Part shown: one piece after another, positions 4,105 to 53,597 of the stretch
How positions within the stretch are numbered: position 1 is the stretch's first letter
Layout: every line of letters starts with the position of its first letter
From: a phage
Reading direction: 5' to 3' (one strand)
Length of the DNA: 64,000 nt
Assembly (NCBI GenBank): GCA_025812035.1
Contig: GCA_025812035.1_4719.1
Translations under genes and position numbers: made by a program
The notes under the pieces: generated by a model
What the model was told of the DNA's origin: nothing
Seen by the model: only the letters and a program-made list of their open reading frames with translations
Database searches by the model: none

Positions 4105-4134
4105 ATCCTCCCAACCCGTAAGGGAAGGGAGGAT
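4105..4134. terminator. conserved two-tier GC hairpin (family copy 1), putative bidirectional terminator
   Basis: ATCCTCCC-AACCCGTAAGGGAA-GGGAGGAT at a convergent gene junction. Confidence 0.55.
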
Positions 4135-4152
4135 GAAATATGCCGTTAAACG

Positions 4153-4794
4153 TTATTCAGCAAACCCTGCATTCAACAGATTGTCGTAAACACGATTAGC
4201 GACATCACTAGGAGAATGTGTGTTACTGGTGTCTATACATAGCGTTTTTGCGTCGCCGAGATAGTCCATAAAATCCATGTAACGATAACGTCGTTTATTG
4301 AATGTCGCTTCATCGATGTTATCAAACATCTGATGTTTAGCGTGACGAACACGGAATCGTCTTAAATACGTAGGATAGTCGATATCCAGATAAACGTAGT
4401 AAGACGGCATGATGATCGACGGCAGGTTCGGTAACAACGCATCAAACAACTTGACGTTAGCATCATTAACCTGATAAACGTACGTCGAAGCAACCGAACG
4501 ATCGCTAAGCACGGTCTTCCCTTCGTTGAGGGCTGGATGAATCACCTTGTTGAAGAGATGATTACGTTGCGACATCATCGCCAACAGCTCAGTTTCCGGA
4601 TCGAATCTGTTTGTTGGTGTTTGGTCTTCCAGGATAAGTTTACGAATTGCTTCTCCGTAGAGAGTACCACCGGGTTCACGTACAACACAGACATTGTTTA
4701 AACGGCTGTGTAAAGACGAGATAACCGAACTCTTTCCTGAATAATCCAAACCTTCAATAACGATATACTTATTACGAGACATTCCCCGCTCCAA
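4153..4794 (-). CDS. tmk: thymidylate (dTMP) kinase
   Basis: P-loop YIVIEGLDYSGKSS, REPGGT motif and DRS motif align with the N-terminal half of bacterial Tmk. Confidence 0.85.
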   Translation of the reverse strand: MERGMSRNKYIVIEGLDYSGKSSVISSLHSRLNNVCVVREPGGTLYGEAIRKLILEDQTPTNRFDPETELLAMMSQRNHLFNKVIHPALNEGKTVLSDRSVASTYVYQVNDANVKLFDALLPNLPSIIMPSYYVYLDIDYPTYLRRFRVRHAKHQMFDNIDEATFNKRRYRYMDFMDYLGDAKTLCIDTSNTHSPSDVANRVYDNLLNAGFAE

Positions 4795-4798
4795 TTAA

Positions 4799-6025
4799 CT
4801 ACTTCGTTTTTGCCGCCAACGGCTGCGATACTGTAATCTCTACCCGATTCTCATCGGTACGTTTAACGGTGATAAGGCTGCGTTCATCGCCGAATGGTTC
4901 TGCTACCTTGGAAGCCTCTTTAAGATTTTCAAGAATCTCGCCAGAGGGTTCAAACACCGCGAAACCGGAGCTAGTGTCAGTTCTTATTAAACCTACGCGC
5001 GTACCATTTACGGTAATGATGTCGTCCGTCTTGAACCCGCAGCAGGAGGGTAGACAGAACTGGCCGTTAACGCAATTAGCTAGGTATGCCTCACCGCCGA
5101 ACATTTCTATTAACGTTACCGGTTTAAATGTTTTCTCTGGGAAAGCGCTATTAAGGGTATCGTTTCCATTCACGAACCAGATCGTTACTTTATCTTCAGA
5201 ATACTCTAGTCTGTACGGCTGGGTTGCGGACGCTTGCGCTTTATGCTGATTAAATAACTTTGATTTCGTCGCAATCACAACACGACCTTCAGCATCAAAG
5301 TACAGAACTTCATATCCAACACATCCGATAAACACGCGACGGTTATTAAGTTCCGGAATTCTGACTAATAACGCATCACGGTTATAAGTAGGAATGATGC
5401 CCCGTAGGATGATCGATTCGTTGTTCAATGTTGCATTGCTCGCGACGATGCTTCGCATTGCCGCTGGCGTCAGTATTTTATCTGCTGTAGGTTTAAGTTG
5501 CTCCGCTGTTACAGTCATGGATCTATCTTCGTTTTCAACTGGCCAGTTGAAAACGATTGTTTTATTAAGACAAACAATTGGGGTAATTTCGCCGATACTC
5601 CGTATCTTGACTGAGGGGAAATTGCACACATACGGAACAAAAACATCAATATCGCTGGTCGCTTCTTCAAGCATGCTAGCATACGCCATTGCTTCGGGAC
5701 GATCGGTGAGATGAATAACAGCATAGACGATATCGTCTTTTAACCACGCATGTTTCACTCGTCCTATAACACGATTGGTGTCTACAATAACTCTCTGAGC
5801 TTTCATCTCCCATTTTACTGCATCAGTACCACCCGCAACCACATTCGGTTTATCCGCGTTTACACGATGAAGGAAACTATTGATTATTTCCTCATTGATC
5901 TGGATATCCTTTCTCGCAAAATTCAACAGCGGAATAACGAACTCATTGTTACCGCACTTCACTGCTCCGCGAATGATAGGAGTACACTTCTTGTTCTCAT
6001 CTGATCCCCAGATAACTTTAGTCAT
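4799..6025 (-). CDS. hypothetical protein (~408 aa)
   Basis: ORF track start is GTG at 6052. The ATG at 6025 has SD GAAGGA. Stop is TAG. No motif recognised. Confidence 0.6.
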   Translation of the reverse strand: MTKVIWGSDENKKCTPIIRGAVKCGNNEFVIPLLNFARKDIQINEEIINSFLHRVNADKPNVVAGGTDAVKWEMKAQRVIVDTNRVIGRVKHAWLKDDIVYAVIHLTDRPEAMAYASMLEEATSDIDVFVPYVCNFPSVKIRSIGEITPIVCLNKTIVFNWPVENEDRSMTVTAEQLKPTADKILTPAAMRSIVASNATLNNESIILRGIIPTYNRDALLVRIPELNNRRVFIGCVGYEVLYFDAEGRVVIATKSKLFNQHKAQASATQPYRLEYSEDKVTIWFVNGNDTLNSAFPEKTFKPVTLIEMFGGEAYLANCVNGQFCLPSCCGFKTDDIITVNGTRVGLIRTDTSSGFAVFEPSGEILENLKEASKVAEPFGDERSLITVKRTDENRVEITVSQPLAAKTK

Positions 6026-6058
6026 TTTCTGTTTCCTTCTTGGGTTTTGCACAAGTTT

Positions 6059-6700
6059 CTAACGGCGTTTTGTACCAACCTTCCCATTTCGATGGTCATC
6101 AAGAATACGCCATTCTTCGAACAGGAGTTCAGCAGCGAAATAACCTACGGCAATGCTGTCTATCGCATGCTCATCAAGATTCGCTAACACAACACCATTC
6201 TTGGGTGTGATGTTCATGAGGTTCAATACTTTCTGGCGAACATCGTCCTTACCAACGCGGGACGTCATGATCCCAACGGCACGTTTTGCGCTTCGGTTAT
6301 CAACCCCTAAGAAAGACACCGTAGGGTCAAAATCAATAACCGTTGTCTGAATCGCTGAAAACAGTTCACTGAGCGCCATACCGCTTTGCTTGAAACGACC
6401 GATGAACGGTGTCTCACAAGCAACCGCTTGTGGCTGGTACTCTTGCAATAACGTTGTCAGCGAACGACGATGTTCTTGGATACGTGCGGCACGATTACCA
6501 TACCCAAGTGCAATATCGCCATCAGGATCATACCGACGGGAGGCGTGCCATGTCCCCGCATACAGCAGTTCAATATCTTCGACACGCACATCCAAACGCA
6601 GTAACGACGCACCGAGCGTATCGGTGCCGGGGTCGATTGCCAGAATATCGTAAGCGTATTCTGGTGGAATCATGGCGTTACAACAGCCTCCACCGACCAT
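6059..6700 (-). CDS. RuvC-like Holliday junction resolvase
   Basis: LAIDPGTDTLG (first catalytic Asp), ACE (Glu) and DEHAIDSIAVG (C-terminal Asp pair) match the RuvC layout. Stop is TAG. Confidence 0.75.
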   Translation of the reverse strand: MVGGGCCNAMIPPEYAYDILAIDPGTDTLGASLLRLDVRVEDIELLYAGTWHASRRYDPDGDIALGYGNRAARIQEHRRSLTTLLQEYQPQAVACETPFIGRFKQSGMALSELFSAIQTTVIDFDPTVSFLGVDNRSAKRAVGIMTSRVGKDDVRQKVLNLMNITPKNGVVLANLDEHAIDSIAVGYFAAELLFEEWRILDDHRNGKVGTKRR

Positions 6701-7488
6701 GGGAAGGTTTTCGCAATAACGCCTTCCAGGAAGCGCTCAACTTCGGATTGCTCGTATACCGAAAGCTTTTCAAACGGCGTTTGGTCTTCGGTTAAACCCA
6801 CCGCATGAATAGGACCCAGATCTTTAACCAGGGTGACTTCGCCTTTAACGCCTTCACGTTTAACGATGACGGCGTGGTCATTGACCTTAGGATCGTACAG
6901 TACACGCATCATGGTTACCGCATCATTCGGTTCATAACCGAAATCGATAGCAACACGAGCACTCGTCCCTTCTTCATCCAAGAGCTTGCTCAACGCTTTA
7001 CAGCGGTCTTCAATCCAATCCAACGCCACCGCGGTTTCTTGGCGTAGCTGAACCTCAACCTCTTTTCCTTGTTCATCGATACGTTTCACGGTAACAAAAT
7101 CATGCAATAAACGATCCGGAAGGAGAGAAGCGATAAGCTCAACGTTTGGTTCAGGTTTCTCGTTTTCCAGAATGATGGTCGCTTGTGCGTCCAGATGTTC
7201 TTTAAAACGGATGTAGCGCGTTAATCGCAGAACCTCGTCTTGGGATTTTGCGTCTTCGGGGATAATCTCCGTCATGACGTTATAGATCTTTTCAGCGAAC
7301 GTCGGAATTACGGTGATGGTAATTCGTGCTGGTGTGCCACGCTCTTGGTACTCATCGGCTAACTTCTTCGCCATCCCGTTAAAGTAGGTCTGAAGAAACG
7401 GTTGTTGCGTTAGAAACATTTTCTCCAAATCGGAATAGCGATGCTTGCGTGCATGACCTAGCTTCTTCATAGGCTTTTTCATCAACAT
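6670..7488 (-). CDS. hypothetical protein (272 aa)
   Basis: Long ORF in the recombination module. No motif recognised. Confidence 0.55.
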   Translation of the reverse strand: MLMKKPMKKLGHARKHRYSDLEKMFLTQQPFLQTYFNGMAKKLADEYQERGTPARITITVIPTFAEKIYNVMTEIIPEDAKSQDEVLRLTRYIRFKEHLDAQATIILENEKPEPNVELIASLLPDRLLHDFVTVKRIDEQGKEVEVQLRQETAVALDWIEDRCKALSKLLDEEGTSARVAIDFGYEPNDAVTMMRVLYDPKVNDHAVIVKREGVKGEVTLVKDLGPIHAVGLTEDQTPFEKLSVYEQSEVERFLEGVIAKTFPWSVEAVVTP

Positions 7489-7503
7489 AAATCCTTATTT
7501 ATC

Positions 7504-9960
7504 TTAAATAATCGTGACGTGTTCGTTATACGTTTCAGGGAGGATGATATTCGTTTTATCAAGAACCATACACTCAGCTTTACGGAATGATGCATGGTTG
7601 ATGACATAATGGCTGATGAACCATACTTGGCTTACACGGTGACCATCAACCAAACGACGAACAAAATCCATGGCATTAGATTGGTGTTGCGGATCAAATG
7701 TTGATGCGAATTCATCCAGCATCAAGGGATAATCCGTAAACCCTTTGTAATGCATCATCGCGATGATGAACGCGATATTGATAATTTCCTTTTGCCCCTT
7801 ACTCCCATAAACAATATCTTTTCGCGGTGTCGGATACTTCTCGGTTAGAAGCGGGAAACGATAATTCAATCCTTGCGCATCGATAGCACAAGGGAGTATC
7901 TGAAGTTGGTATTCCCAAATACTCGCAATGATGCCGTTCATGTATTCGACGAACGCGTTGATTGGACCAGCGATTGTTTCAGCAATCAGGCCGTTAGATG
8001 GACTTAACTCATCCAGAACAAGCTGTGCGTAACTGAGCTGTTCTTCCACCTCTTTTTGCGTTGTTTCCAGCTGAGCCAAAAGCTGTTGGTCGGTTTTAGC
8101 TTCCTGTAACTGCTGTTCGACATGGCTTATTCTGCGAACCGTATCAGACATCGCAGCGCGTAACGATTTCGTGTAGAGGTGCTGTAGATATTCTAACCAC
8201 AGTTGCGTTAACGCTTTGTCGCTATTATCCGAACGTACCTGATCTTCCATAATCGCCGTGATGGTTTCCAATCTACCTTCCGTAGCCGTAATGGCTTGCG
8301 TTAACCGTTCAACGGTCGTTAGCAACTCCGTCCTGTTCTTATAAAGCAGTTCTCGGCGTTGCTGTAATGGTTCAACATCGACAGCTTGCACACGTTCGAG
8401 CATGCCTTGAAGATGCTTCCGTTCTTGTTCGGCTTGGGTGTAACGCGCAAGCTTCTCAAATGCGAGCAGCCAATCATTAATGATTCCAATACTGCGAAAC
8501 CCTAATCCGTTTTTACGTCCTTCTTCCAGCAGATTGTCCCACATGGGTTTAATGGCGTAATAATCTTTCGTCCAACGTGTTAACTGACGATGCTGCTCCA
8601 TCCAAAGCGTATAACGCTGAACCTTCTCACTCAGCTCAGCTAACGACTTCTCTTGTTCTTCAACCCAAGCACGGCCCTTCTGAATACGTTGTTCGATGCC
8701 TGCTTTGCTGGTCTTTTCCGTTTCACCAACATGAAAGCGATAATTGCATTTTGGACAGCTGGTCTGCGGCTGATGATTCAGATGATCGAGATGCGCCTCT
8801 AAATCAGCTAACGCATGTTTCGCGTTACGTAAGCGCATTCTTGCTGCCTCTTCCTCCTTGATGTAAGCTTCGGCATCGTAAACGTGGTAGGTATTATCGG
8901 TATCAATCCATTCTTGCAGTAATTCCGTTAACGGAGCCTGAACTTGCGTGAGCTGCTGTAAGCAAACCACGGCATCCAGATTCATCGTTAAAAGCTCGCC
9001 CGGATGGTCTTGTTGGAGTTGTTCGTCCAAACGTGCAAGGCGGGCTTTAATTTGATCGATATCACCTTCTCCAGACTGTTTCAACTGGTCAAGGATATTA
9101 TCAATGCCCAGCAATTCATCAACCTGACTTTCGAGTTTCGCATTCGCATTCGCGAGCTGTTCTCTTAATTCAGCCAGATTCTGCTGTTCTTGCTGTGACG
9201 TTCCTCCTTGATAACGAACAACCGCATGAAGAAGCTCGCGATTAAAATGATGGGCACGTTGTGCGGATTCCAGAAGCTGTCGTTGATCAACATCGCTATC
9301 GAATAACGGCAATCCCATCATCGCTTCGAGCGCTGAGCGCTGCTGTTTTAGTTCTGCTTCCAACCCCTGGTGGTCGGTTCCTGTGTATTTCGCTTCAATT
9401 CGCTGTGATGTTTCAACCAGTTTATTCAGTGTATGTTCATTCACCGCTTTCAGTGAACGTACTTGTTGCTTAACAACCTGGAACAGCTCAAGCGCATAAT
9501 CGACATTAACTGGACATATCTGTGTTAGTCGTTCACGACGTTTCATCGGCCCCATTTCAGTGAACTGGTAAGCCGTTTCGTAACCTAACAACAAACGAAT
9601 GGTGTCATCATTAAGTTCGAAATGTTCTTCAATTAGTTTCCATTGAGCGGGTTGTGTGCCGCCGCCATTCAGGTTCTCGCTGTCGTTAACGTAGAACTCA
9701 TGCTTAAACCCTTTTTCTAAACGACTGATAAGACGGTATTGTTTGTTACGATGTTCACAGCGGTACTCGTAATACCCGTCTTTATCAAAATCCGCACGTT
9801 CAGGAACGGTCGGATACAACAAAGGCAGCAGACTACTCTTACCCGAACCATTGCTACCTAAAATGAGTTGTACGGGATTATCTGGCCGGATGACCAGCTC
9901 CCGAATCATCCCGGTATCAAAACGATTGAATCCACGTAAGTGGAGATAGGTGCATCGCAT
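7504..9960 (-). CDS. Rad50/SbcC-like SMC-type ATPase
   Basis: Walker A GSNGSGKSS, long coiled-coil, CPKC zinc-hook-like motif, and C-terminal YGSKGQKE signature plus LMLDEF Walker B. ORF track start is 10023; the ATG at 9960 gives the typical MRCTYLHLRGFNRF N-terminus. Confidence 0.7.
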   Translation of the reverse strand: MRCTYLHLRGFNRFDTGMIRELVIRPDNPVQLILGSNGSGKSSLLPLLYPTVPERADFDKDGYYEYRCEHRNKQYRLISRLEKGFKHEFYVNDSENLNGGGTQPAQWKLIEEHFELNDDTIRLLLGYETAYQFTEMGPMKRRERLTQICPVNVDYALELFQVVKQQVRSLKAVNEHTLNKLVETSQRIEAKYTGTDHQGLEAELKQQRSALEAMMGLPLFDSDVDQRQLLESAQRAHHFNRELLHAVVRYQGGTSQQEQQNLAELREQLANANAKLESQVDELLGIDNILDQLKQSGEGDIDQIKARLARLDEQLQQDHPGELLTMNLDAVVCLQQLTQVQAPLTELLQEWIDTDNTYHVYDAEAYIKEEEAARMRLRNAKHALADLEAHLDHLNHQPQTSCPKCNYRFHVGETEKTSKAGIEQRIQKGRAWVEEQEKSLAELSEKVQRYTLWMEQHRQLTRWTKDYYAIKPMWDNLLEEGRKNGLGFRSIGIINDWLLAFEKLARYTQAEQERKHLQGMLERVQAVDVEPLQQRRELLYKNRTELLTTVERLTQAITATEGRLETITAIMEDQVRSDNSDKALTQLWLEYLQHLYTKSLRAAMSDTVRRISHVEQQLQEAKTDQQLLAQLETTQKEVEEQLSYAQLVLDELSPSNGLIAETIAGPINAFVEYMNGIIASIWEYQLQILPCAIDAQGLNYRFPLLTEKYPTPRKDIVYGSKGQKEIINIAFIIAMMHYKGFTDYPLMLDEFASTFDPQHQSNAMDFVRRLVDGHRVSQVWFISHYVINHASFRKAECMVLDKTNIILPETYNEHVTII

Positions 9961-10074
9961 GCTATGATAATCCTTCTTCGATACCTTCTGAACCACGGGT
10001 TCAGAATGCGAAGCTGAAGCCATACTTCAGCGTTATTTTCTATATCGTTATTTAAATCAGTAGGAGATTACAGC

Positions 10075-11163
10075 ATGAGCGATCTGGCAACAGACAATCG
10101 CACAAAAGGGAGTCAGCTGGCTCCAGATAGCAACGTAAGCGTTTTCCGTATCTTTGCCTTGGGTACTGTTGCTGCTGACTTTTCCAATAAAAGCCTGGAG
10201 GAAGATCCTAATCAGGCGCTGGAGGTCTTTCTTGACGAAATGATGTCAGGTGCTGATGGGAAAGTTGAAGCGGCGGGAAGCGTTAAAGAAGTCAGTGCAA
10301 CAGACGCTCAAGGGAACAGTTATACAGCGAAAGCGGCAACAACAACCAGTGTACAGTGTTATTGGTTACCCTTTGGCAGTAACCGGATGACGGCCCCTAA
10401 CTTGAGGAAAGGTCAGCGTGTAGTGGTCTGGCGTACCGCAGATGAAGAACAGCTGTACTGGCAACCCAAAGGAGGGGATAGTGAGCTGATGACCATGGAA
10501 TCGGTTATCCTGACCGTCAGCGCACGTCCTAACGCTAAGAAGGACCGTAAATCGATTTCAACGGAAGACTGCTATTACCTAATGGTTGACACCTTCCTTA
10601 AGAAAGCAGTTATCGGCACCAGCGCACAGCTTGGTGAAGTTACCCAGGTCTACATGGAACTTAATCTGGACGAGGGTTACTTACAGGTTGCGGACAGCGT
10701 CCATCAAAACCTACTATTGCTCCATTTCGTTGAACATATGCTGCGATATCAAAACCAGGACGACAGCATCATCGACGTGACAAAAAAGAACATCACATTC
10801 CAATGCGAGGATACGCTCAAAGCAATCGCTAAGAACGATATCCGAATGAAAGCCAAAAACATTTATACGGAATGTGAAAACTTCGAACGTGTCAGTAAAA
10901 CAGAAAGCGTTACGAGTCAGAATGTTTCTTTGAAATGCGATCGCTACGCCGCGCAAGTATCAGGACAGACCACGTTCAAATGTCCTAACACGGTATTCAC
11001 AGGAGCTGTGAGCTTCACCGGTGAAGACGGAAACACGATGACGTTGAACGGGAACTTCATCCATATCGCAGGATCGTGGCGTTCACCAAGCGGAACAAAC
11101 GTATACACCCACGACCATGGTGGCGTTAAATCCGGTAGCAGTAGAACCGACCCGTTCCAATAA
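10075..11163 (+). CDS. putative baseplate central spike (gpV-like), C-terminal HxH motif
   Basis: Central region resembles an OB-fold spike domain. The C-terminus ends in THDHGG, like the iron-binding HxH apex of P2 gpV-type spikes. Motif-level only. Confidence 0.4.
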   Translation: MSDLATDNRTKGSQLAPDSNVSVFRIFALGTVAADFSNKSLEEDPNQALEVFLDEMMSGADGKVEAAGSVKEVSATDAQGNSYTAKAATTTSVQCYWLPFGSNRMTAPNLRKGQRVVVWRTADEEQLYWQPKGGDSELMTMESVILTVSARPNAKKDRKSISTEDCYYLMVDTFLKKAVIGTSAQLGEVTQVYMELNLDEGYLQVADSVHQNLLLLHFVEHMLRYQNQDDSIIDVTKKNITFQCEDTLKAIAKNDIRMKAKNIYTECENFERVSKTESVTSQNVSLKCDRYAAQVSGQTTFKCPNTVFTGAVSFTGEDGNTMTLNGNFIHIAGSWRSPSGTNVYTHDHGGVKSGSSRTDPFQ

Positions 11164-11186
11164 ACAAAAAAGAAATACGCCACAAC

Positions 11187-11220
11187 TTCCTTCCCCGGCC
11201 TTGATGGCTAGGGAAGGAGG
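11187..11220. terminator. GC hairpin (family copy 2, variant loop)
   Basis: CCTTCCCC ... GGGAAGG at a convergent junction. Confidence 0.45.
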
Positions 11221-11236
11221 ATTTATAGTTTATTTA

Positions 11237-11626
11237 TTAACGTGTTGCGTTCTGGATAATTTCTTTTCCGATCTTAACCAAAGCAGGTATCTGTACAGCG
11301 GTTGCACCTCGATGACGAAACGCGGTCGTTAACGCGGTATCAATACTTACAGCACGTCCGTGAAGACGATCGAAATAGACTTGAGTAATTGCAGCAGCAT
11401 AATCCTTTCGCTGTTTCTTGGTCTGGTTCAACAGCGCTGTACTACTACCAACAATGAAATAAGCGATTAAGAAGAACGCTGCTGACCGCGAACCAGGTAG
11501 AAAACCTTGTCGCTTAGGAAGCATCTCACAATCACGAACAGTATTATCGTTCGCGAGCTTTTCCATGTCGACATGGCATAATTTTGCATAGGTGTGAAGA
11601 TAGTGGGTAAAAGTTGAATTTAACAT
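11237..11626 (-). CDS. hypothetical protein (129 aa)
   Basis: ORF with SD-like context. Confidence 0.5.
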   Translation of the reverse strand: MLNSTFTHYLHTYAKLCHVDMEKLANDNTVRDCEMLPKRQGFLPGSRSAAFFLIAYFIVGSSTALLNQTKKQRKDYAAAITQVYFDRLHGRAVSIDTALTTAFRHRGATAVQIPALVKIGKEIIQNATR

Positions 11627-11731
11627 TTTCTTTCCTCGGTTACAATGAGTTCAATGTATAGCTTAAACGCCGCAGAACGACGTATAACGGTTTGTTTTAA
11701 TCTCTAAGGTGTTTCCTTGTCTAAGATTGAA

Positions 11732-12094
11732 TTAAAGCGTTCTGAAGAGTTCTGTAGCGTTCTCGTCACGTAAACAGGCTTCGTTCAACAATTCAGCTAA
11801 CAGCTTCGACCGAGCTTCAACGAATGTCCTGAGGCGATGCTTCCATTCTAAACAGACGGTGTATGAACGATCTAGCTTTTTGTGCTCGACGATAGATGAC
11901 GTGCAGTAGGTTTCGCGTTTATTCACATCGTCCCAAACATCACGAATGATCGTCAAGCCTTTCTCAGTACATGTAAACGTTATAACGTAGTGATTGTTCG
12001 CTGCTTCAACATGAACATCAATAAATTCGTTTCGTAGCGATGAGGTATTGGTTAAACGATCAATAGCGAGCGATAAACCGACACGTTGTTGCAT
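11732..12094 (-). CDS. small protein, paralog family S (member 1)
   Basis: Shares FTCTEKGLTIIRD-type motif with the next two genes. Confidence 0.5.
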   Translation of the reverse strand: MQQRVGLSLAIDRLTNTSSLRNEFIDVHVEAANNHYVITFTCTEKGLTIIRDVWDDVNKRETYCTSSIVEHKKLDRSYTVCLEWKHRLRTFVEARSKLLAELLNEACLRDENATELFRTL

Positions 12095-12095
12095 A

Positions 12096-12524
12096 TCAGA
12101 CCCCCTCTTTCAGAATCTCATTAAGGCTATTAGCAACCGCATCTAACTTCGTGTTGATTACTGTTGGTGTCAATCCGTATATTTTCCAAACTATCTCCGG
12201 TTGACGTATTCCATTTGTCAGACAATGCATTTCGATCGACAACACCATATCGTCGGTGAACGTCGTGCTTTCGCAACAACGAAGATAGGCAGCCTCAAGC
12301 AACGTCTTTCCTAACGTGGTACACACAAAAGTCAATCGAACGCAACGCAAAGACAACGTGTTCGCATTCATTGATGCTGAGACCGGCTGAATATGTTCAC
12401 GCAGTTTTTCGTCTTCACGTAATAGTGATAGGGTGCGATGTAAGCTGGTATGCTGAGCAACCAGCGAATGATAAAGACCAACGCGCGCTGCAGTTACTGC
12501 TGATTCGGGCCATTTAATTTGCAT
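12096..12524 (-). CDS. small protein, paralog family S (member 2)
   Basis: CTTLGKTLLEAA matches CSQTGKTLLENA in 12526-12942. Confidence 0.55.
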   Translation of the reverse strand: MQIKWPESAVTAARVGLYHSLVAQHTSLHRTLSLLREDEKLREHIQPVSASMNANTLSLRCVRLTFVCTTLGKTLLEAAYLRCCESTTFTDDMVLSIEMHCLTNGIRQPEIVWKIYGLTPTVINTKLDAVANSLNEILKEGV

Positions 12525-12525
12525 G

Positions 12526-12942
12526 TTATTTTCCTCGATTTTCTAGTTGAGACACAATACCATCGGCAACGTAATGTAACTGGACATTCAGGTCCAGCGG
12601 CGATAATGCGGAAATTGACCAGCAGGCATTTGAGGTCCAATACAACCCACCTTCACCCAAAGAGACTTCCCACGTTAACTTCGTTATGACGTCTCTGGCT
12701 CGCTGCTCACTATATCGAAATGCATTTTCCAACAATGTTTTTCCCGTTTGTGAACATAAAAAGCACAGTTTCACATCTGTGTCCGTCTTTTCAAAATCAA
12801 ACAATCGAAAATGGTCGGTCAAAGAGGTGGTGGAGGCTAGGCATTGCAATGCGTCTTCCAACGCAAGATGGTCTAGCGTTTCTAAGTTCTTGCATGGCTG
12901 TTTTGGTGCAAGTGCGATTGATTTGCAGAATTTAACGTTCAT
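12526..12942 (-). CDS. small protein, paralog family S (member 3)
   Basis: See previous entry. Tightly packed with 1-nt spacing. Confidence 0.55.
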   Translation of the reverse strand: MNVKFCKSIALAPKQPCKNLETLDHLALEDALQCLASTTSLTDHFRLFDFEKTDTDVKLCFLCSQTGKTLLENAFRYSEQRARDVITKLTWEVSLGEGGLYWTSNACWSISALSPLDLNVQLHYVADGIVSQLENRGK

Positions 12943-12990
12943 GGTTATTTCCTCGTAGTGTTAAGTGGGGACACACCTGTCCCCGAATAA

Positions 12991-13461
12991 TTAGATTACA
13001 TCCCAAGCTGCGTTGGGTATGGGTTGGTTACGATCGATGTAATACATCATGCTTTCTTTAAGTTTGGTCAGCACATCAGCAACGATGTTCTCTACGGCAA
13101 TCACCTTTTCCATGTTGCTCATCGTATCTTGCCACGTGAACCATTCGATCACATTGACGATATGTAAGACCTCATTGTCGTCGGTCATGACCTGGGCATT
13201 TTCACGATGGTCTCGAGTTGTGTACAACGGTGTTTGTATATTCGTTTTAATACGCGTCCAAAGCTTCTCAAGAAAGTTCGTCGGTTGATTATTCGTCGCG
13301 ATGATAAGCTCACTGCGTACCAAATGTTCTCCTCGCTTCTCAATGGCAAGTAACCCATCGTAAGTGATGTTCATCAAGTTACGGAGGTCATCATTGCTAT
13401 TCCAGTCTTTTACGACAGCAGGAAGTTGGCTGTTGTAGCCTTCGGGTAATTTTTCAATCAT
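12991..13461 (-). CDS. hypothetical protein (156 aa)
   Basis: ORF in a co-directional array. Confidence 0.55.
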   Translation of the reverse strand: MIEKLPEGYNSQLPAVVKDWNSNDDLRNLMNITYDGLLAIEKRGEHLVRSELIIATNNQPTNFLEKLWTRIKTNIQTPLYTTRDHRENAQVMTDDNEVLHIVNVIEWFTWQDTMSNMEKVIAVENIVADVLTKLKESMMYYIDRNQPIPNAAWDVI

Positions 13462-13906: not shown

Positions 13907-13929
13907 TCGTTCTATAACAAACTTTTATT

Positions 13930-13952
13930 GGAAGGGAATATGTTTCCCTTCC
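13930..13952. other. perfect 9-bp GC hairpin GGAAGGGAA/TTCCCTTCC (family-related)
   Basis: Sits between co-directional genes and has no adjacent U-tract. Confidence 0.4.
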
Positions 13953-13970
13953 TTGGGTTCGGTTATTGCG

Positions 13971-15102: not shown

Positions 15103-15183
15103 TTTAGATCTCTCTTTGTTAATGGTAAATAAATAACGGCATAAAAAGGGGACAACGCTGTCCCCGTGTTAGGTATTATCTGC

Positions 15184-17106: not shown

Positions 17107-17191
17107 CTAAAAAGATCCTCTGTTTTTTCACGTTAATTAAACAACGTATTGATTTCTATTCGATAGCAATACGAACATCGTACGTACGCAT

Positions 17192-17890: not shown

Positions 17891-17905
17891 GAGAGATTAA
17901 TTCAA

Positions 17906-45403: not shown

Positions 45404-45437
45404 AGCCTCCCCCAACCCTTGCGGGCTGAGGGAGGCT
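45404..45437. terminator. conserved two-tier GC hairpin (family copy 8)
   Basis: AGCCTCCC ... GGGAGGCT, 3' of the 740-aa gene. Confidence 0.5.
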
Positions 45438-45534: not shown

Positions 45535-47757
45535 TCAGTTAGTCTGAACCGGCAGCTTGATGTTTTCAGTGTAGACCTTACGCAGGTTCACGACGTTAAT
45601 CAGACCCAGCAGCGGGCAGTTGTTAACGAAGCGGCAGCGCGGCTGAACCATGGTTTCTTTAGAAACCTGACCGTTACGGGTAACCTGAGCAACAGATACC
45701 AGTTCCGGTACATACAGGAACATACCGAAGGTCAGCGGATCCGGAGAACCCTGGATACCACGAGACAGGGTCACGAAGATCTTATCACGCAGCAGGACGT
45801 TCGGGTTATCTACAACCACGAAGTTGAAGCTTACACCAACGGTACGGAAATCACCATCGGTCTGCAGGAACTGCGGGATGTAGTTGTCGGTTGCTACTAC
45901 GCAACGCGGTTTCTCATCAGCGTTGGAAGACAGCAGCTGCAGAGCTGGCTGATAACCAGACTCAGAGTACATGCGGTATGCCATCTCACGAATCACGTTC
46001 ATGATCGCAGCGGACACTTCAGCACGACGTTCTGCAGTGGTGGTACCCTGAACGGATTTCGCCAGGTCCAGGTTGATTTCTTCGAACCACGGACGGATCA
46101 GGTAACGACCGAAACCTTCGATCTGGATGTCACCGAACTGACGGAAGCGAGAGGTCGCAACTGCTTTCAGTGCGTCTTTGTAGCTGAACAGTTTCTCAAC
46201 CATCAGGTTGTCGAAACGTGCGTTAGCCGCTTGGATCAGAACGTCCAGGTCAGCAGCGTTTTCTTCCCAATCAAGCGGACGAGGAATGGAGAACGGAGCC
46301 AGCAGACCGATTGCGTAACGCTCTTGCTTCATGTTGAAGTCAAGGTGCTTACCACGTTCACGACGGTTGCTGTTGTTACGACGGATACGCAGTTCGTAAC
46401 CAACCAGTTTGAAGCTCAGGTCGTCAGCCAGGTCTTTGAATTCTTGGCTCTTACGCGGCTGTTCGATGTTGTCCTGATCAACCAGGCGATACAGTTCAGC
46501 GTTAGCGCCGTTAACACGCAGACCCGCTTTCTCTACGTTGGAAGAACCGTAAACTTCGATAGCCAGCTGAGCAGCGGATTTCGCATCGATGATGTCCTGC
46601 AGCGCTTCGGCTTTCGCACCTTTAACGTCAACGGTGTTCTCATCAACGAAGATGGAGTGAGTGTCGAACGCCAGGGTCATTTTGCGGAAGTCGCCTTCCA
46701 GAGATTTCTGGAAACCGTTGGTGATCAGACCGGATACGTCGAACGGAACGTAAGAGGTTTTGCTGTGCTTAGCGGATTTGATTTCCACCAGGATTTTGGT
46801 CAGCGTGATCTGAGCATCCAGCGCGTCGGTGTTGTCGCTGTAACCGTTAGCCAGAATGCTATCGTCTTCAGCGATACCGATCATGTCGATCAGTTTATCA
46901 ACAGCCAGGTAAGACGTTTTATAAGTTACGCCTTTAATTTCGATGTCACGCGGAGCAACGATAGCTTTGTCAACGAAGTACTGCGCGTTAGCATCGTCAG
47001 CACGATAGATCGGGTGCAGGTCGGTCACGTCGTTGGACAGAACGTCGTTGTACATGAACGCGTCCAGCAGCGGACGACGTACCCAATCAGCCGGAGTACC
47101 GTCAGCGTTACGACGCAGATGGTTGAATACCAGCGGACGACGGAAAGATACGTCATAACCGATCTGGTTCGGAGCCAGAACGATGGTGTTGTACAGTTCG
47201 TTACCCATGCGGCTCAGACGAGAAGCCTTCACGTTGAACACAACGGAGTACGGCATCATGTCGCGCAGTTCTTTCTGGTCGTAGGACAGCTGAACCAGTT
47301 CTTCAGATTCGCAACCGCAGGAATCAGCAGCCATCATGACGAAGTTAGAGCTGTCAACTTCACGACCTGACGGAGTGGTGCTGATGTTCATGGAACGTGC
47401 TTGTTTAGCGTATTCCACCGGGTTACCATGAGCCAGCATGATCAGTGCTGCTGCACGAGCCTGCTGTGCGTTCATGGTGAACAGCTGTTCTTCAATACGC
47501 TGCTTCTCTTCCGGAGTGGTGGTTTCGAAGCCCAGCATAGACAGAACCGGTTCTTCTGCTTTACGGATGTCGCTGCTGAAGCTCTTAACATCCATATCGT
47601 TAACCAGTTTGTCCATGGATTTGAAATCAACCTTAGAAGCAGATTCCATAGACAGGAAGGTGTTTTCCAGACCTTTGTCTGCTGGTTTGCTACCATTAGC
47701 GGTCAGGAACTGGCGAGTGGCCGCGACCTGCTGGCTAAGAAGGGTTTTATCATTCAT
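45535..47757 (-). CDS. major virion structural protein (~740 aa; major capsid candidate, tail sheath not excluded)
   Basis: Strongly optimised codons (CTG, CGT, GGT, ACC, GAA). Monocistronic between a promoter-like region and a hairpin. Size is typical of jumbo-phage capsid proteins. Confidence 0.5.
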   Translation of the reverse strand: MNDKTLLSQQVAATRQFLTANGSKPADKGLENTFLSMESASKVDFKSMDKLVNDMDVKSFSSDIRKAEEPVLSMLGFETTTPEEKQRIEEQLFTMNAQQARAAALIMLAHGNPVEYAKQARSMNISTTPSGREVDSSNFVMMAADSCGCESEELVQLSYDQKELRDMMPYSVVFNVKASRLSRMGNELYNTIVLAPNQIGYDVSFRRPLVFNHLRRNADGTPADWVRRPLLDAFMYNDVLSNDVTDLHPIYRADDANAQYFVDKAIVAPRDIEIKGVTYKTSYLAVDKLIDMIGIAEDDSILANGYSDNTDALDAQITLTKILVEIKSAKHSKTSYVPFDVSGLITNGFQKSLEGDFRKMTLAFDTHSIFVDENTVDVKGAKAEALQDIIDAKSAAQLAIEVYGSSNVEKAGLRVNGANAELYRLVDQDNIEQPRKSQEFKDLADDLSFKLVGYELRIRRNNSNRRERGKHLDFNMKQERYAIGLLAPFSIPRPLDWEENAADLDVLIQAANARFDNLMVEKLFSYKDALKAVATSRFRQFGDIQIEGFGRYLIRPWFEEINLDLAKSVQGTTTAERRAEVSAAIMNVIREMAYRMYSESGYQPALQLLSSNADEKPRCVVATDNYIPQFLQTDGDFRTVGVSFNFVVVDNPNVLLRDKIFVTLSRGIQGSPDPLTFGMFLYVPELVSVAQVTRNGQVSKETMVQPRCRFVNNCPLLGLINVVNLRKVYTENIKLPVQTN

Positions 47758-47906: not shown

Positions 47907-48527
47907 TCACAAACGACGCAGGCGATAATGGATGGAACGATTGGTGCAATATGAACGGAACAGCGGCAATTGCGCAACTTCCGCAAGACTCATATTAATT
48001 CGCAGGTGTTCAATAACGGCGCTGTAGTTATCAGCAATACGATCGCTCAATAACTCTTCTGCCAATAAAGGAAGACAATCGACAACAATCGCGATCATAT
48101 CCTCATTAACATAACGCACCCGAACACTCAACGGACGTTTGTCTGGGCTGTAAGTTGGATCCGCCAAACGACGTTCAATATCACGCGGATAGCTCGTCAG
48201 TAAATGGTAGTAACCATTATCATAACGATTGATGTACTCACACAGCACATCAACATTCTTTTCTGGCGGCAAACCTGTTTCGTCATAGTGATACGCAAAC
48301 ATACCACCAAGCAGGTTGTTAAGATGAACTGCAGGGTTCGCTTGTTCGTGTTCTTTCGTGATGAAGAAAGGCACGTTCTGAGCTGCGAAATAAAAACCTA
48401 CATCATTGGGCGATAGTATGCCGAAAAGACTTTTAGGATCCAACAGCACCTGTAAGTCATCACGCGCATTTCGAATGATTGCGTGTTCTACCCAATTCGG
48501 AACGACGAGATATCGGAGTTCCTTCAT
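47907..48527 (-). CDS. hypothetical protein (206 aa)
   Basis: ORF with SD AGAGG. Confidence 0.55.
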   Translation of the reverse strand: MKELRYLVVPNWVEHAIIRNARDDLQVLLDPKSLFGILSPNDVGFYFAAQNVPFFITKEHEQANPAVHLNNLLGGMFAYHYDETGLPPEKNVDVLCEYINRYDNGYYHLLTSYPRDIERRLADPTYSPDKRPLSVRVRYVNEDMIAIVVDCLPLLAEELLSDRIADNYSAVIEHLRINMSLAEVAQLPLFRSYCTNRSIHYRLRRL

Positions 48528-48566
48528 TATGATTACCTCTTTGTAAGTATCGAAAGGATTGAGTCG

Positions 48567-50177
48567 ATGGACCCAAAACAGATAGCCATTAAGATTATTA
48601 CGTTACTGTTTCGTAACGCACAATTGAACCATCCAGATCCCAGTACGATCGACCATGTTAAATCCGTCTTAGATAAAGTCGAACCCCCGAAAAACCATCT
48701 CGCTACGGACATAGATAGAGAGGTTTTCAACAACCTGATGAATACCATTCATTGGATGTTGGAACAACCATTATCGGAACCTTTCGATAAACAACAGTTG
48801 TTACAAAGGATACGTTTGGATTGTCTTGAGCAAAGCAATCTTTACGAGATTCTTGCCGACGGACTGTACGATATCGAAGACGATGCTCATATCAGTAAGG
48901 TCTGTTCGCTTTATTACAACGAATTGCGTAACTTGGTTACCCGTCGTCGTGTTTTCGAAACCTTTAAAAACACATACATGGATATCAGTAATGGGCGTCT
49001 TGGGGATAAAGAATTTTTCGACGCGATGGCGAATTTGAAACTCTCGCTAGACAGTATCGAAATGGATACCGAAAATCCCGAAGAGATGTCGTGTATGATT
49101 GACGGTTTTATCGCCGACAGTGAAGACGATATCGAGAAAGTCGAACGTATGTTCATCAAAGCGATGGAACGTAACAGTCCTGAAGGTGGATTTGTAACCG
49201 GCTGGCAAGGTTTTAATAAAATGCTAGGGTCGGTCGGTGTTTTACGTCGCGGTACCTTAGGACTGATTGGTGCGATGCAGCACAGGAACAAGTCGGGCGT
49301 GCTGTTAAAACTGTTCACACATCTGGCGTTGTACAATAAACCTCATTTCTTTTTTCCGGAGCGAGCAAAGAAAGCATTACTGATTCATTTGTCAACAGAA
49401 AACGAAGTAGAAGAAAACACGCTTCAGATATACAAAAACATGCGAGAACAGGAAACAGGCGAATATGTCGATATTCGTAAGATTGACCCTCGCGAGGCAT
49501 CACGTTATGTGTTGAAGGTTTTCAATGACGCGGGTTTCTCTGTGTGTATGCGTCGTGTTGATGGGATGAGCTATAAACAACTTGCGAACCTCATCGACCA
49601 TTTTGAACGCATGGGCTATGAAGTCATGGCGTTGTTCATCGACTATCTGAAAATGTTCTCATCGGAAGGGCTGGATAGAAACGGACCAACCGGCGCATGG
49701 CTACAAGAACTCTTCAACAAAGTCCGTAACCTCTGCAGCGTTAAACGTATTTTAGGTATGACCGTACACCAGCTATCATCCGACGCGAAGATGCGTGCGC
49801 GTGACGGTAACGATGAAGAGTTTGTTGACCAGGTCGCAGGCTTAAGTTACTGGGATGGCTGTAAAGGGATTGACCGTGAGATCGATCTTGAAGTGATTGT
49901 TGATATCGTTAAGGAACCGGGTAAACGTCAAAGCTGGCAAGTCTTTGCATTAGGGAAAGACCGTCAACCGGATAACGGTTCAACGAAACCTGAGGATAAA
50001 CATTTCACGATGCCGTTCCAAACCATCGGGATGCTTCCTGATGATTACGGTAAGAAAGCAGTATACTGCCGCAAGGTTGGCGGACAACCTGTCTCTGAGG
50101 GAGGCAAAGGTCCGTGGAACAAGTTCGATGAAAACGCAGCGCCGAGCAATGAATTACAATTTGATTTAGAATTTTAA
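48567..50177 (+). CDS. DnaB-like replicative helicase (RecA-fold), non-canonical P-loop
   Basis: Walker B-like ALFIDYL, H3-like VHQLSSDAK, and a P-loop-position segment GAMQHRNKS. ATG at 48567 has SD AAGGA; ORF track start is 48483. Confidence 0.5.
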   Translation: MDPKQIAIKIITLLFRNAQLNHPDPSTIDHVKSVLDKVEPPKNHLATDIDREVFNNLMNTIHWMLEQPLSEPFDKQQLLQRIRLDCLEQSNLYEILADGLYDIEDDAHISKVCSLYYNELRNLVTRRRVFETFKNTYMDISNGRLGDKEFFDAMANLKLSLDSIEMDTENPEEMSCMIDGFIADSEDDIEKVERMFIKAMERNSPEGGFVTGWQGFNKMLGSVGVLRRGTLGLIGAMQHRNKSGVLLKLFTHLALYNKPHFFFPERAKKALLIHLSTENEVEENTLQIYKNMREQETGEYVDIRKIDPREASRYVLKVFNDAGFSVCMRRVDGMSYKQLANLIDHFERMGYEVMALFIDYLKMFSSEGLDRNGPTGAWLQELFNKVRNLCSVKRILGMTVHQLSSDAKMRARDGNDEEFVDQVAGLSYWDGCKGIDREIDLEVIVDIVKEPGKRQSWQVFALGKDRQPDNGSTKPEDKHFTMPFQTIGMLPDDYGKKAVYCRKVGGQPVSEGGKGPWNKFDENAAPSNELQFDLEF

Positions 50178-50202: not shown

Positions 50203-50234
50203 CCCTCCTCCAACCCGTAAGGGAAGGAGGAGGG
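50203..50234. terminator. conserved two-tier GC hairpin (family copy 9)
   Basis: CCCTCCTCC-AACCCGTAAGGGAA-GGAGGAGGG at a convergent junction, preceded by A9. Confidence 0.55.
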
Positions 50235-50249
50235 TTATGACCGTGTTGG

Positions 50250-50576
50250 CTAACTTATCGTCATGAATTCACTCGGTGAGAATTTCCAACCATTCTCATT
50301 GAGAAGTGTGTTGAGTTTCGCTGCAACGATAAGCCATGCATGCATAGCCGTTACGTCGTATTGGCGATTTACCCGACGTTGGTTTTCGATATTGATTTGC
50401 TCCTGTTCAGTGATGTTTGGATAAAGTGCGATAGCGCTGGGCTTACCCAAAGCGCTAGTCATCACCGCGGTACATTCACTGATAATGTTGTTTAAGTGGT
50501 AGTTGTACACCGTTCCACGCATGACACGATGACGGCATTCGATAATAGCGTCGTAAATGATTTCTCGAGTAATCAT
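50250..50576 (-). CDS. hypothetical protein (108 aa)
   Basis: ORF. Confidence 0.5.
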   Translation of the reverse strand: MITREIIYDAIIECRHRVMRGTVYNYHLNNIISECTAVMTSALGKPSAIALYPNITEQEQINIENQRRVNRQYDVTAMHAWLIVAAKLNTLLNENGWKFSPSEFMTIS

Positions 50577-50582: not shown

Positions 50583-51086
50583 TTAAAACATGCGGTCGTT
50601 TTTAGCACGGGCGTCCATTACGAGATCGTAGATACCTGCGGTTCGTAAACATTCTTCGTAATAACGATGTGTGCCTTCCTCAGCCATCCACGATAATCCT
50701 CGGTTATCCGCAACAATAACCAGTTTGTTATTGTTGAACGCGCACACCACACGGTAGGTCGCGTTGTTATTCGGATCGCGAGTGATAAGCTCGTAGACGC
50801 CATTGACAGGTTTACTGAATTCACCGTTTAACGGGACAAGTTCAGTAGTACCTTCAGCGAACGTCGCGTTGATTGGTGATGGATCTTTAGCGATAACTGT
50901 ATATTCCACGTTATGTTCTTTACTGGTCATAATGCCGAAGTAAGAACTAATAGGGGAACGTGGTACACTAAGAATATTAAACATGAATGTTGTCCTCTTA
51001 TTTGGATTTAGATTGTTGGGTTTGTCATTGAGAAATGAATTAGACGATGAGCGCCCAGGTAGTAAGCACACCGCTTGCGAATTCAA
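50583..51086 (-). CDS. hypothetical protein (167 aa)
   Basis: ORF. Confidence 0.5.
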   Translation of the reverse strand: MNSQAVCLLPGRSSSNSFLNDKPNNLNPNKRTTFMFNILSVPRSPISSYFGIMTSKEHNVEYTVIAKDPSPINATFAEGTTELVPLNGEFSKPVNGVYELITRDPNNNATYRVVCAFNNNKLVIVADNRGLSWMAEEGTHRYYEECLRTAGIYDLVMDARAKNDRMF

Positions 51087-51609
51087 GCTTAAGACGTTTG
51101 CCGATAAGTTGTTGTTGGATCATCTTCTCAGTGGTACGACGATCTTGCTGAACAGCTTTATCGAACGCTTCTTTCGCTTCGGCCTGGTAGAAGTTCGTTT
51201 CTTCGTTTTCATCGATCTCCTCGAGCGTACCCTCGTCGATGTCGGCAAGTTTTACTCGACCGTTCTCATCGGGTTGTTCTGCAGGTTCATTGTCATAAGG
51301 CGTGTCTTTTGTTGGTGCGACACGATGCTGCAACTCGACCTGTGTTAACATGATCTCCATCTCACCATCGATAGGAATGATTTCGTCGGCGCAGCCGTTT
51401 TCGGTCAGCTCTCGACTTTCCAGTAACGTCGTGGTAACAGAGAACACCTCTTCAACAGGAACCTCATCATCGTCGATGGTGTTAACCGTATTGCTGGTAA
51501 CTTCGGCAACAACCATCAAATCGAACGCGTGAGGATCGCCTGGCATTTTGATTCCTGGAAGTTTGTTGAGATACCAAGGATCAAGAATCATGATTTCTGG
51601 ATTGAACAT
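51040..51609 (-). CDS. acidic hypothetical protein (189 aa)
   Basis: D/E-rich ORF. Confidence 0.5.
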   Translation of the reverse strand: MFNPEIMILDPWYLNKLPGIKMPGDPHAFDLMVVAEVTSNTVNTIDDDEVPVEEVFSVTTTLLESRELTENGCADEIIPIDGEMEIMLTQVELQHRVAPTKDTPYDNEPAEQPDENGRVKLADIDEGTLEEIDENEETNFYQAEAKEAFDKAVQQDRRTTEKMIQQQLIGKRLKLEFASGVLTTWALIV

Positions 51610-52586: not shown

Positions 52587-52671
52587 ACTCGGCTCCTTGA
52601 TTACGATAAGGATGATTGCGGTTTTGTGATGCTGGTAGGGCCCTAAACAAAGGAGCCCTACCAATATTGGG

Positions 52672-53451
52672 TTACTCAGGATCGGCGTAGAAATGATGGG
52701 GATAGCCGGAGTACGATCCCGCGTTACCGGCTATGGATTTTTTCTGGGAATCGACGACGAGCGCATAGAACTGTCGGGAATTTGTTAGCGTTGAGAAATA
52801 AGAGGAAAGGACTTTTTCATTCAACGCATCGCAAGGTAGACAGGTGCGACCGCAAAACGTCACAATACGACCGTCAGGATAGATCTCACGAATCATTCTC
52901 CATTCGCCGATATCAACCGGCGATGGCGCTGCTACAGCACCCGTTATTGTTAAGTAACGATCGTACGTGGTGTGGCATTCTGGATGAATGTAGATCGGTT
53001 GGGTATCAGTGCTTTCGTTTTCTACCTGATCTTTGCTTACGTATACCTCAAGATAAATCGTTGGTAGTCCGGTTAGAACGCCGGTATCGCGACGTTTTTT
53101 GGTAATCCGGGGACGGATATTATCGAGCACACCTTCCAGTTTTTCTGCGATTTCGTCAGCCGGTAATATATACCCGTATGTTGGTTCTAGATCATCATCG
53201 TGACTGAATAAGATACGACAGTCGTTGTTATTTTCTGGTGCTTCAGGCGGAAAGATGATGGCTTGAACCGTATGACGTTCTGCGATATAAAATCCTTCAG
53301 GTCCCTCAGTTTTGGTAAGTGTAAAGGACCAGGATGAATGATCTTCAAGTGATGTGCCTTCCAGGAAAAAGTTCGTCCGGATTGGTGCGTCCCATTTTGT
53401 GATCATATTGGCGTGACCGATAGCGCCTAACTTTTGATAAATATCTGTCAT
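52672..53451 (-). CDS. paralog family Y protein (member 2)
   Basis: IREIYPDGRIVT. ATG at 53451 has SD GAGGA; ORF track start is 53547. Confidence 0.55.
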   Translation of the reverse strand: MTDIYQKLGAIGHANMITKWDAPIRTNFFLEGTSLEDHSSWSFTLTKTEGPEGFYIAERHTVQAIIFPPEAPENNNDCRILFSHDDDLEPTYGYILPADEIAEKLEGVLDNIRPRITKKRRDTGVLTGLPTIYLEVYVSKDQVENESTDTQPIYIHPECHTTYDRYLTITGAVAAPSPVDIGEWRMIREIYPDGRIVTFCGRTCLPCDALNEKVLSSYFSTLTNSRQFYALVVDSQKKSIAGNAGSYSGYPHHFYADPE

Positions 53452-53507
53452 GATTGTATCCTCGGTTGTTAAGAGAAATTTACAGCGATAACAGTAACCG
53501 TTGTTAT

Positions 53508-53531
53508 CACCTAGGTAATATAGTCGTGAAA
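53508..53531. promoter_or_regulatory. conserved 24-nt motif (copy 4; CACCTAGGTAATATAGTCGTGAAA)
   Basis: Part of the ~90-bp cassette 53508-53597. Confidence 0.45.
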
Positions 53532-53565
53532 TAAACTGGATTAACAAGAATAAGACAGCATAGAA

Positions 53566-53597
53566 CCCTCTCCCAACCCATCAGGGAAGGGAGAGGG
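53566..53597. terminator. conserved two-tier GC hairpin (family copy 10)
   Basis: CCCTCTCCC-AACCCATCAGGGAA-GGGAGAGGG. Confidence 0.5.

Follow-up and report, generated by a model that had tools for sequence, protein, structure and literature searches.

The 64,000-nt stretch of phage DNA analysed here (called the window in what follows; NCBI GenBank assembly GCA_025812035.1, contig GCA_025812035.1_4719.1) harbours at its gene ends a family of very stable, two-tier GC-rich hairpins, most of which are followed by a short conserved tail. We consider it probable that a Goslar-like chimallivirus uses these hairpins to terminate transcription and that they are read by the multisubunit RNA polymerases which the phage itself encodes. 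Their anatomy and statistics, the covariation of their stems, their strand-specific pairing and their match to a motif mapped in phages phiKZ and 201phi2-1 all argue for this interpretation.

The window represents approximately the first 64 kb of the genome of a Goslar-like nucleus-forming jumbo phage. When a 12-kb slice was compared with 50,697 phage records, it matched Escherichia phage vB_EcoM_Goslar (hereafter Goslar) over its full length with 93% identity, and no other record matched. Goslar is a nucleus-forming jumbo phage of the Chimalliviridae, genus Goslarvirus, and the numbering of the window parallels that of its record starting at about base 43. Features named 'putative transcriptional terminator' in the Goslar record fall on the orthologues of the window hairpins at 1796, 3463, 11186, 19685, 29828 and 58870.

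Two-tier hairpins at gene ends

A sequence-only reading of this DNA had proposed one family of at least ten hairpins. All ten are present, and a covariance model built on the stems recovers nine of them, at 4104, 11186, 17859, 19685, 29828, 38924, 45404, 50203 and 53566. The tenth, at 13930, is missed by the model, being a short purine-first hairpin (GGAAGGGAA/TTCCCTTCC) of another type that lacks the internal loop; the family in the window thus numbers nine. As MAFFT alignment of hairpins plus flanks put the tails out of register, the model was made from the stems alone and the tails were analysed apart.

The consensus of the nine aligned copies comprises nine outer pairs, a 2x2 internal loop that is either AA/AA or UU/UU, an inner helix of three invariant C-G pairs (CCC/GGG) and a terminal loop of 4-5 nt. 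The outer tier consists of CCCUCCUCC/GGAGGAGGG and variants thereof; pyrimidines dominate its 5' arm and purines its 3' arm. The window contains the core CCAACCCNNNNGGGAAGG five times, for 0.16 expected, and the stability of the hairpins ranges from -21 to -32 kcal/mol. Three copies had been described as nearly identical; those at 29828 and 50203 are identical 32-mers, and 4104 deviates in the outer stem. The nine copies are as follows.

4104-4135, both strands: two-tier hairpin at the convergent junction of genes 3791-4099 (plus) and 4153-4794 (minus); TATG at 4139-4142 on the plus strand and 4098-4095 on the minus strand; hairpin 100% identical in Goslar
11186-11220, plus strand: variant two-tier hairpin at a convergent junction, better paired on the plus strand (dG -24.4 versus -21.6); plus tail TTTATAG, T6 run at 14 nt on the minus side; internal-loop positions imperfect in Goslar too
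17859-17890, minus strand: two-tier hairpin after minus-strand gene 17906-18832; minus tail TTATGCTGT (TATG 17857-17854), no tail on the plus side
19685-19717, plus strand: variant two-tier hairpin between the gp023-like plus-strand gene 18943-19485 and the minus-strand endolysin gene 19782-20417; full pairing on the plus strand only, with two G·U pairs; plus tail TCTTAT
29828-29859, both strands: two-tier hairpin at a convergent junction; TATG at 29862-29865 (plus) and 29826-29823 (minus)
38924-38958, both strands: two-tier hairpin with a 5-nt loop at a convergent junction; TATG at 38961-38964 (plus) and 38918-38915 (minus)
45404-45437, minus strand: hairpin located 97 nt past the major capsid gene 45535-47757 (minus); full pairing only as minus-strand RNA; minus tail TCTATGCTGT (TATG 45401-45398)
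50203-50234, both strands: two-tier hairpin at the convergent junction of the helicase gene 48483-50177 (plus) and gene 50250-50576 (minus); plus tail TTATG (TATG 50236-50239), minus side without TATG and with a T9 run at 12 nt
53566-53597, minus strand: two-tier hairpin 4 nt past the stop codon of gene 53602-54969 (minus); minus tail TTCTATGCTGT (TATG 53562-53559), no tail on the plus side

At most sites, the stem starts 4-30 nt past a stop codon, the exceptions being 45404 (97 nt), 19685 (64 nt) and a further hairpin at 3721 (263 nt). Six of the ten hairpins first listed lie at convergent junctions, as had been proposed, provided that 18943-19485 is re-read as a plus-strand gene, and the copies at such gene pairs could serve both directions. 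It also holds that every plus-strand gene end abuts a hairpin, which for gene 2636-3457 is a single-tier hairpin with a UUCG loop at 3463.

The pairing itself appears to have been maintained. Over 16 distinct sequences, 99.5% of the alignment cells are paired and compensatory changes are found at 6 of the 12 pairs, a result reached by none of 500 shuffles. Nearly all of the compensatory changes are from C-G to U-A, which indicates that the polarity of a pyrimidine 5' arm and a purine 3' arm is itself conserved. The nearest relatives available for this analysis were Goslar and two IMG/VR contigs, with capsid proteins 99-100% identical in all, and the stems are near-invariant between the window and Goslar in spite of 7% genome divergence. 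With so few and such close relatives, the covariation rests on paralogous copies, of which the whole 237-kb Goslar genome has about 21 that match the model strongly. A search of the whole window against Rfam at the gathering threshold yielded no match.

The stability of the stems also differs between the two strands. Because of G·U pairs, several of them pair well only on the strand of the upstream gene, and stability tracks that strand. The free energies on the transcribed and opposite strands are -31.5 and -22.4 kcal/mol at 45404, -28.8 and -21.5 kcal/mol at 19685, and -17.0 and -11.6 kcal/mol at 3463. At 45404, the sole stem change between the window and Goslar turns a G-C pair into G·U on the minus strand.

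A family of this kind might conceivably be a selfish or neutral palindrome, similar to repetitive extragenic palindromic (REP) sequences or miniature inverted-repeat transposable elements (MITEs), which spreads among intergenic sites and has no transcriptional role. The presence of identical 32-mers at more than one locus (window 29828 and 50203, Goslar 71988 and 134583) is in keeping with such spreading, as is a shared genomic orientation, with the AA/AA loop on the plus strand, in 16 of the approximately 21 Goslar copies. Likewise, among the IMG/VR matches listed, only three Goslar-like contigs carry multiple copies of the motif YYCCAACCCN4GGGAAGGRR. Nevertheless, we regard this explanation as highly improbable: all window copies are matched by orthologues at corresponding positions in Goslar, without presence/absence polymorphism; the copies are confined to gene ends; selection on the RNA is implied by the compensatory changes and by the G·U pairs that form on one strand only; and the tail that follows the stems correlates with the direction of transcription.

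The conserved tail and the U-tract

A feature missed in the sequence-only reading is that the hairpins have conserved flanks: (G)CATA(A/G) precedes them and (T/A)TATG(C) follows. Whichever strand is read, the hairpin is followed by YTATG(CTGT), beginning 1-5 nt past the stem. Among 4-mers, TATG is the most frequent in the 10-nt tails; it is present in 11 of 18 family tails compared with 3.7% of intergenic 10-nt intervals (P ~4e-12), and in 16 of 36 tails when all intergenic GC hairpins are considered (same background, P ~4e-14). The sequence GGNNNTTATGCTGT has seven matches in the window for 0.75 expected, and TTATGCTGT forms the tail at 3463, 17859, 45404, 53566 and 58870. The longer pattern YTTATKYYGT describes the tails overall, those of 11186, 19685 and the minus side of 50203 being absent or degenerate. 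Twelve further Goslar copies carry the same flanks.

The hairpin at 3463 had been set against the family as a canonical UUCG terminator. This contrast fails, since its tail, TTTTATGCTGT, is exactly the family tail, and the hairpin belongs to the same terminator class. The tail is thus found on stems other than the two-tier one:

3463-3495, plus strand: single-tier hairpin with a UUCG loop; tail TTTTATGCTGT
58861-58891 (the 58870 hairpin), minus strand: single-tier hairpin, GCCCGCCC UUCG GGGUGGGC; tail TTTATGCTGT
15140-15165 (stem 15148-15165), minus strand: short purine-first hairpin GGGGACA-N4-TGTCCCC with TTTTTATGCC behind it, a different stem with the same tail

There is a second copy of GGGGACA-N4-TGTCCCC at 12967-12984, also between minus-strand genes and without such a tail.

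Counts that combine the window hairpins with the further Goslar copies, the Goslar-wide ones being read off the hairpin alignment and the annotation tables, relate the tail to transcription. It is present on 29 of 34 sides with an incoming transcript and on 2 of 7 without one (Fisher P = 0.0055), and this regardless of the downstream gene (21/26 convergent and 7/7 co-directional sides). Because it tracks incoming transcription and is equally common at convergent junctions, we consider that the tail belongs to the terminator and is more than just a promoter for the next gene.

The latter possibility deserves attention, given that TATG, with G as +1, is the core of phiKZ late promoters (PMC4666361); the phiKZ non-virion RNA polymerase (nvRNAP) binds this core in the non-template strand through its beta-like subunit, gp123 (PMC12809450). 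A gp123 homologue is encoded in the window at 41892-43691 on the minus strand (24% identity over nearly the full length, E 3e-56), and by analogy its product is a candidate reader of the tail. Several genes for RNA polymerase beta-like subunits are annotated in Goslar, in line with phiKZ-like virion and non-virion multisubunit RNA polymerases. The elements could therefore be terminator-promoter composites, in which the hairpin insulates and the TATG behind it is a real nvRNAP promoter for the next gene. At co-directional sites such as 53566, 58870, 15148 and 45404, a gene indeed begins 11-195 nt downstream, and in 201phi2-1, start sites and termination sites adjoin. Lone TATG sequences are also found 26-58 nt before the starts of genes 45535-47757 (minus), 2636-3457 (plus), 18943-19485 (plus), 43728-45203 (minus) and 51040-51609 (minus). 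The tail differs from a late promoter, however, in that it sits past a hairpin at gene ends and correlates with incoming, not outgoing, transcription: it is as frequent at convergent junctions, where a promoter could only fire antisense into the opposing gene, and rare on sides without an incoming transcript. At 53566, moreover, the interval from the tail to the gene holds a promoter-like motif of its own, CGACTATATTACCTA, and TATG alone is insufficient for initiation in phiKZ (PMC4666361). On balance, a composite function seems rather doubtful to us.

The lone TATG of the capsid gene, about 47 nt upstream, fits phiKZ-type late promoters, but TATG alone is weak evidence. A generic sigma-70 promoter scan, run together with the terminator scan described below, found promoter-like sites to be no commoner than in shuffled sequences.

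The tails may also be looked at from the standpoint of translation, as GGAGG of the 3' arm precedes an ATG of the tail by 4-9 nt in many copies, and the hairpins could in principle sequester ribosome-binding sites of small open reading frames (ORFs). This idea is barely credible, because the ORFs that start from the tail ATGs have 6-44 codons, are mutually unrelated and are mostly antisense to real genes.

As for the U-tract, a canonical intrinsic terminator was taken to have at least five U within 8 nt beginning 0-2 nt past the stem. In a generic scan for stems followed by T-runs, which covered positions 1-20000 with four family copies inside, none of 4104 (plus strand), 11186, 17859 and 19685 was listed, whereas the minus strand of the hairpin at 15148 was. 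The earlier claim that no U-run adjoins the stems therefore stands for these, except that 4104 has U5 on the minus strand, where the tail is UUUUUAUG. Runs of T5-T9 are found farther away, 12-22 nt past the stem on the minus-strand side, at the convergent sites 11186, 29828, 38924 and 50203. Among these four, the T6 and T9 runs belong to 11186 and 50203, whose minus sides are without a TATG tail, and they may be compensating or back-up elements.

Terminators of related chimalliviruses

Hairpins of this general type have been mapped in Pseudomonas chimalliviruses. In phiKZ, ONT-cappable-seq (ONT, Oxford Nanopore Technologies) identified 133 termination regions, 61 of which share the motif BCCYCCCCHWWDGGGRRGGBYTTATKYYGT, a stem-loop followed by TTAT that coincides with mapped RNA 3' ends and was classed as intrinsic; six of the regions are bidirectional and lie between convergent genes (Putzeys et al. 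2024, PMC10914365). For 201phi2-1, 132 termination sites were reported, with a main motif that resembles that of phiKZ and with some hairpins elongated by a second motif. Fifteen of its terminators are bidirectional, and eight were found to stop transcription or cut downstream reporter expression in a terminator trap in uninfected Pseudomonas (PMC11512511).

The window elements share with the phiKZ motif the pyrimidine 5' arm, the purine 3' arm and the tail YTTATKYYGT directly past the stem. They also share its intergenic location after genes, its bidirectional use at convergent genes and its position some 90-100 nt after the capsid gene, in viruses of the same family with homologous RNA polymerases. 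The phiKZ consensus marks a site 91 nt past the stop codon of capsid gene gp120, compared with 97 nt for the capsid-gene hairpin of the window, as well as a bidirectional site between the convergent genes gp129 and gp130. Unlike the phiKZ hairpin, a single helix of about 7 bp with a 4-nt loop, the nine window copies have nine outer pairs, the 2x2 loop and the CCC/GGG inner helix. The fifth base of the tail is nearly always G in the window, and G or T in phiKZ. The likeness to 201phi2-1, namely to its motifs A and A/B, is one of description: a phiKZ-like terminator motif, a subset of elongated hairpins and bidirectional copies, in a phage of another host and another genus.

The full phiKZ consensus has a single match in the window with up to three mismatches, at 58861-58890 (three mismatches, 0 expected). 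Its 3' half, which comprises the purine arm and the tail, has seven matches at the same tolerance for 2.25 expected; 3 of 100 shuffles reach seven, which is weakly above chance. Six of the seven are located at the hairpins 3463, 19685, 29828, 45404, 53566 and 58870, and one, at 25528, is without an identified hairpin.

Comparison of the hairpins behind the capsid gene suggests that the tail is more widely conserved than the stem. Their stems differ considerably among phiKZ, Xanthomonas phage RTH11, Ralstonia phage RSF1 and Erwinia phage Desertfox, being purine-first in Desertfox, and the tail is the same, in the form TTATGC(C/T)GT in RTH11, RSF1 and Desertfox. In the Salmonella phage JN03 (Seoulvirus), an ordinary hairpin with a long U-tract and no TTATG tail follows the capsid gene (L012 2170-2225), and the signal is thus not universal in the family.

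Bacterial intrinsic (Rho-independent) terminators are similar to the window elements in having a GC-rich hairpin near the stop codon that can be bidirectional at convergent genes. The window elements differ from them by the lack of a run of at least five U within 8 nt of the stem, by a conserved U/A-rich UUAUGCUGU that includes G and C, and by the strict pyrimidine/purine polarity of their arms.

Proposed mode of action, neighbouring features and significance

We propose that the functional unit would be a very stable hairpin, its 5' arm rich in pyrimidines and its 3' arm in purines, together with the tail YUAUG(CUGU) 1-5 nt past the stem. The RNA hairpin would form behind the phage polymerase while the tail UUAUGCUGU fills the RNA-DNA hybrid, and the tail would stand in for a U-tract by weakening the hybrid or pausing the enzyme. 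Since the inverted repeat stays pyrimidine-first on both strands, copies flanked by CATAA...TTATG should work both ways at convergent gene ends. Strand-specific pairing, the position after stop codons and a tail that tracks incoming transcription all argue for a direction-specific signal acting at the RNA level. That 3' ends form at these sites in this phage, and how the tail acts, we infer from these properties.

The earlier suggestion of a phage-specific reader is plausible, because TTATGC(C/T)GT has been kept after the capsid gene in chimalliviruses of hosts as different as Pseudomonas, Xanthomonas, Ralstonia, Erwinia and E. coli, all of which have their own multisubunit RNA polymerases. 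A factor beyond the polymerase is not required, at least in 201phi2-1, as shown by the eight terminators that work in uninfected Pseudomonas. ChmC, an RNA-binding protein of Goslar and PhiPA3, was considered as a reader and set aside: its peaks in enhanced crosslinking and immunoprecipitation (eCLIP) lie near start codons and define no motif, and thus provide no link to 3' hairpins.

It is tempting to speculate, by analogy with initiation, that the pocket of the nvRNAP beta-like subunit reads TATG during elongation too, so that contact with the tail, combined with a hairpin behind the enzyme, might cause pausing and release. This is a tentative idea to which we give rather little weight, and our literature search found no paper proposing such a reading. 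If true, the chimallivirus terminator would amount to a hairpin joined to a promoter core, with a single pocket used in initiation as well as in termination. The conservation of the tail in phages of very different hosts and the dispensability of the U-tract would then be accounted for.

Several points weigh against the view that the hairpins are terminators of the phage polymerases. Among the 34 incoming tails, five are without TATG (both sides of 11186, both sides of 19685 and the minus side of 50203). The orientation bias of the Goslar copies hints at copying or gene conversion besides selection. None of the nine two-tier copies matches the full published 30-nt phiKZ consensus with three mismatches or fewer, because the inner helix and the internal loop replace its simple loop. 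In the reverse comparison, the two-tier model matches phiKZ hairpins weakly, and only with the inner tier deleted. This deletion, along with the restriction of the listed multi-copy IMG/VR matches to Goslar-like contigs, makes the inner CCC/GGG helix and the 2x2 loop likely to be an elaboration of the Goslar-like lineage. The identity of the tail with the phiKZ late-promoter core makes a promoter role possible at co-directional sites. The literature searched yields RNA-seq data for Goslar, from a time course of infection (bioRxiv 10.1101/2023.09.20.558163), and no mapping of RNA 3' ends for this phage or for Goslar. Finally, the 3' ends mapped by ONT sequencing in the relatives cannot alone tell termination from exonuclease trimming back to a stable hairpin.

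This last point bears on whether the hairpins might instead be RNA processing or stability elements, that is, RNase III sites or barriers to 3' exonucleases that shape mRNA 3' ends after read-through. Very stable hairpins directly past stop codons and, within positions 1-20000, the absence of a canonical U-tract would both be compatible with this. An exonuclease barrier, however, would not be expected to come with a conserved single-stranded tail past the stem, and the 201phi2-1 terminators lower downstream reporter expression in uninfected cells (PMC11512511). We therefore deem this explanation unlikely, with the reservation that mRNA protection and termination are not mutually exclusive.

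Recognition by RNase III, which had been put forward for the family, is unlikely in view of the stems. The enzyme normally needs a near-continuous helix of about 20 bp. That of the family has 12 pairs and is broken by the 2x2 loop.

Several other features of the window and of the Goslar record are worth reporting. The plus-strand gene 18943-19485, opposite which the ORF list has a spurious 181-aa ORF, is an otherwise intact, conserved homologue of the virion structural protein gp023, with an in-frame TAG at 19126-19128 where Goslar has CAG (a single C-to-T change). The TAG could stem from a nonsense mutation or a sequencing error, or it could be a site of read-through. Between this gene and the 19685 hairpin, at 19495-19535, there is an AT-richer hairpin with an 11-nt loop (AGAGCAATAG...CTATTGCTCT), followed by TATGCGCT on the minus strand.

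The sequence CGGCTATATTACCTA is found on the minus strand at 2515-2529, 17196-17210 and 53512-53526, two of these occurrences being exact and one having one mismatch, upstream of minus-strand genes; within three mismatches, there are six matches, compared with 1.1 expected. In view of its similarity to the phiKZ middle-promoter element AAanTTACc, it may be a phage promoter. One occurrence, at 17196-17210, is in a stretch of about 750 nt (17107-17858) in which no ORF exceeds 42 codons. Goslar has this gap as well, between gp021 and gp022; on the minus strand, the stretch begins directly past the 17859 terminator with its TATG. A non-coding RNA, without a match in Rfam, may be encoded there.

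The Goslar record itself starts inside a truncated hairpin copy (1-27; L002 1-27) and ends just past a complete one (237243-237279; L006 31144-31180), followed by TTATGCCGTCAAGC and A13. Its ends thus sit at a terminator.

As a kind, the element is already known: it is a conserved chimallivirus terminator, some copies of which are annotated as putative in Goslar, and as a genomic observation, its presence here is largely expected. Our literature search found no terminator or promoter analysis for Goslar. What is new is modest and consists of the two-tier architecture, the near-universal G of the tail, the link between the tail and incoming transcription, and the conservation of the tail across five host genera. 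The sites reported here provide a ready terminator map for Goslar-like phages, a main model of the phage nucleus. They show that the phiKZ-type signal, a hairpin plus a TTATG tail, reaches a chimallivirus of E. coli, in an elaborated, two-tier form. That the tail is identical to the late-promoter core and yet tracks incoming transcription raises the concrete question of how these polymerases terminate.

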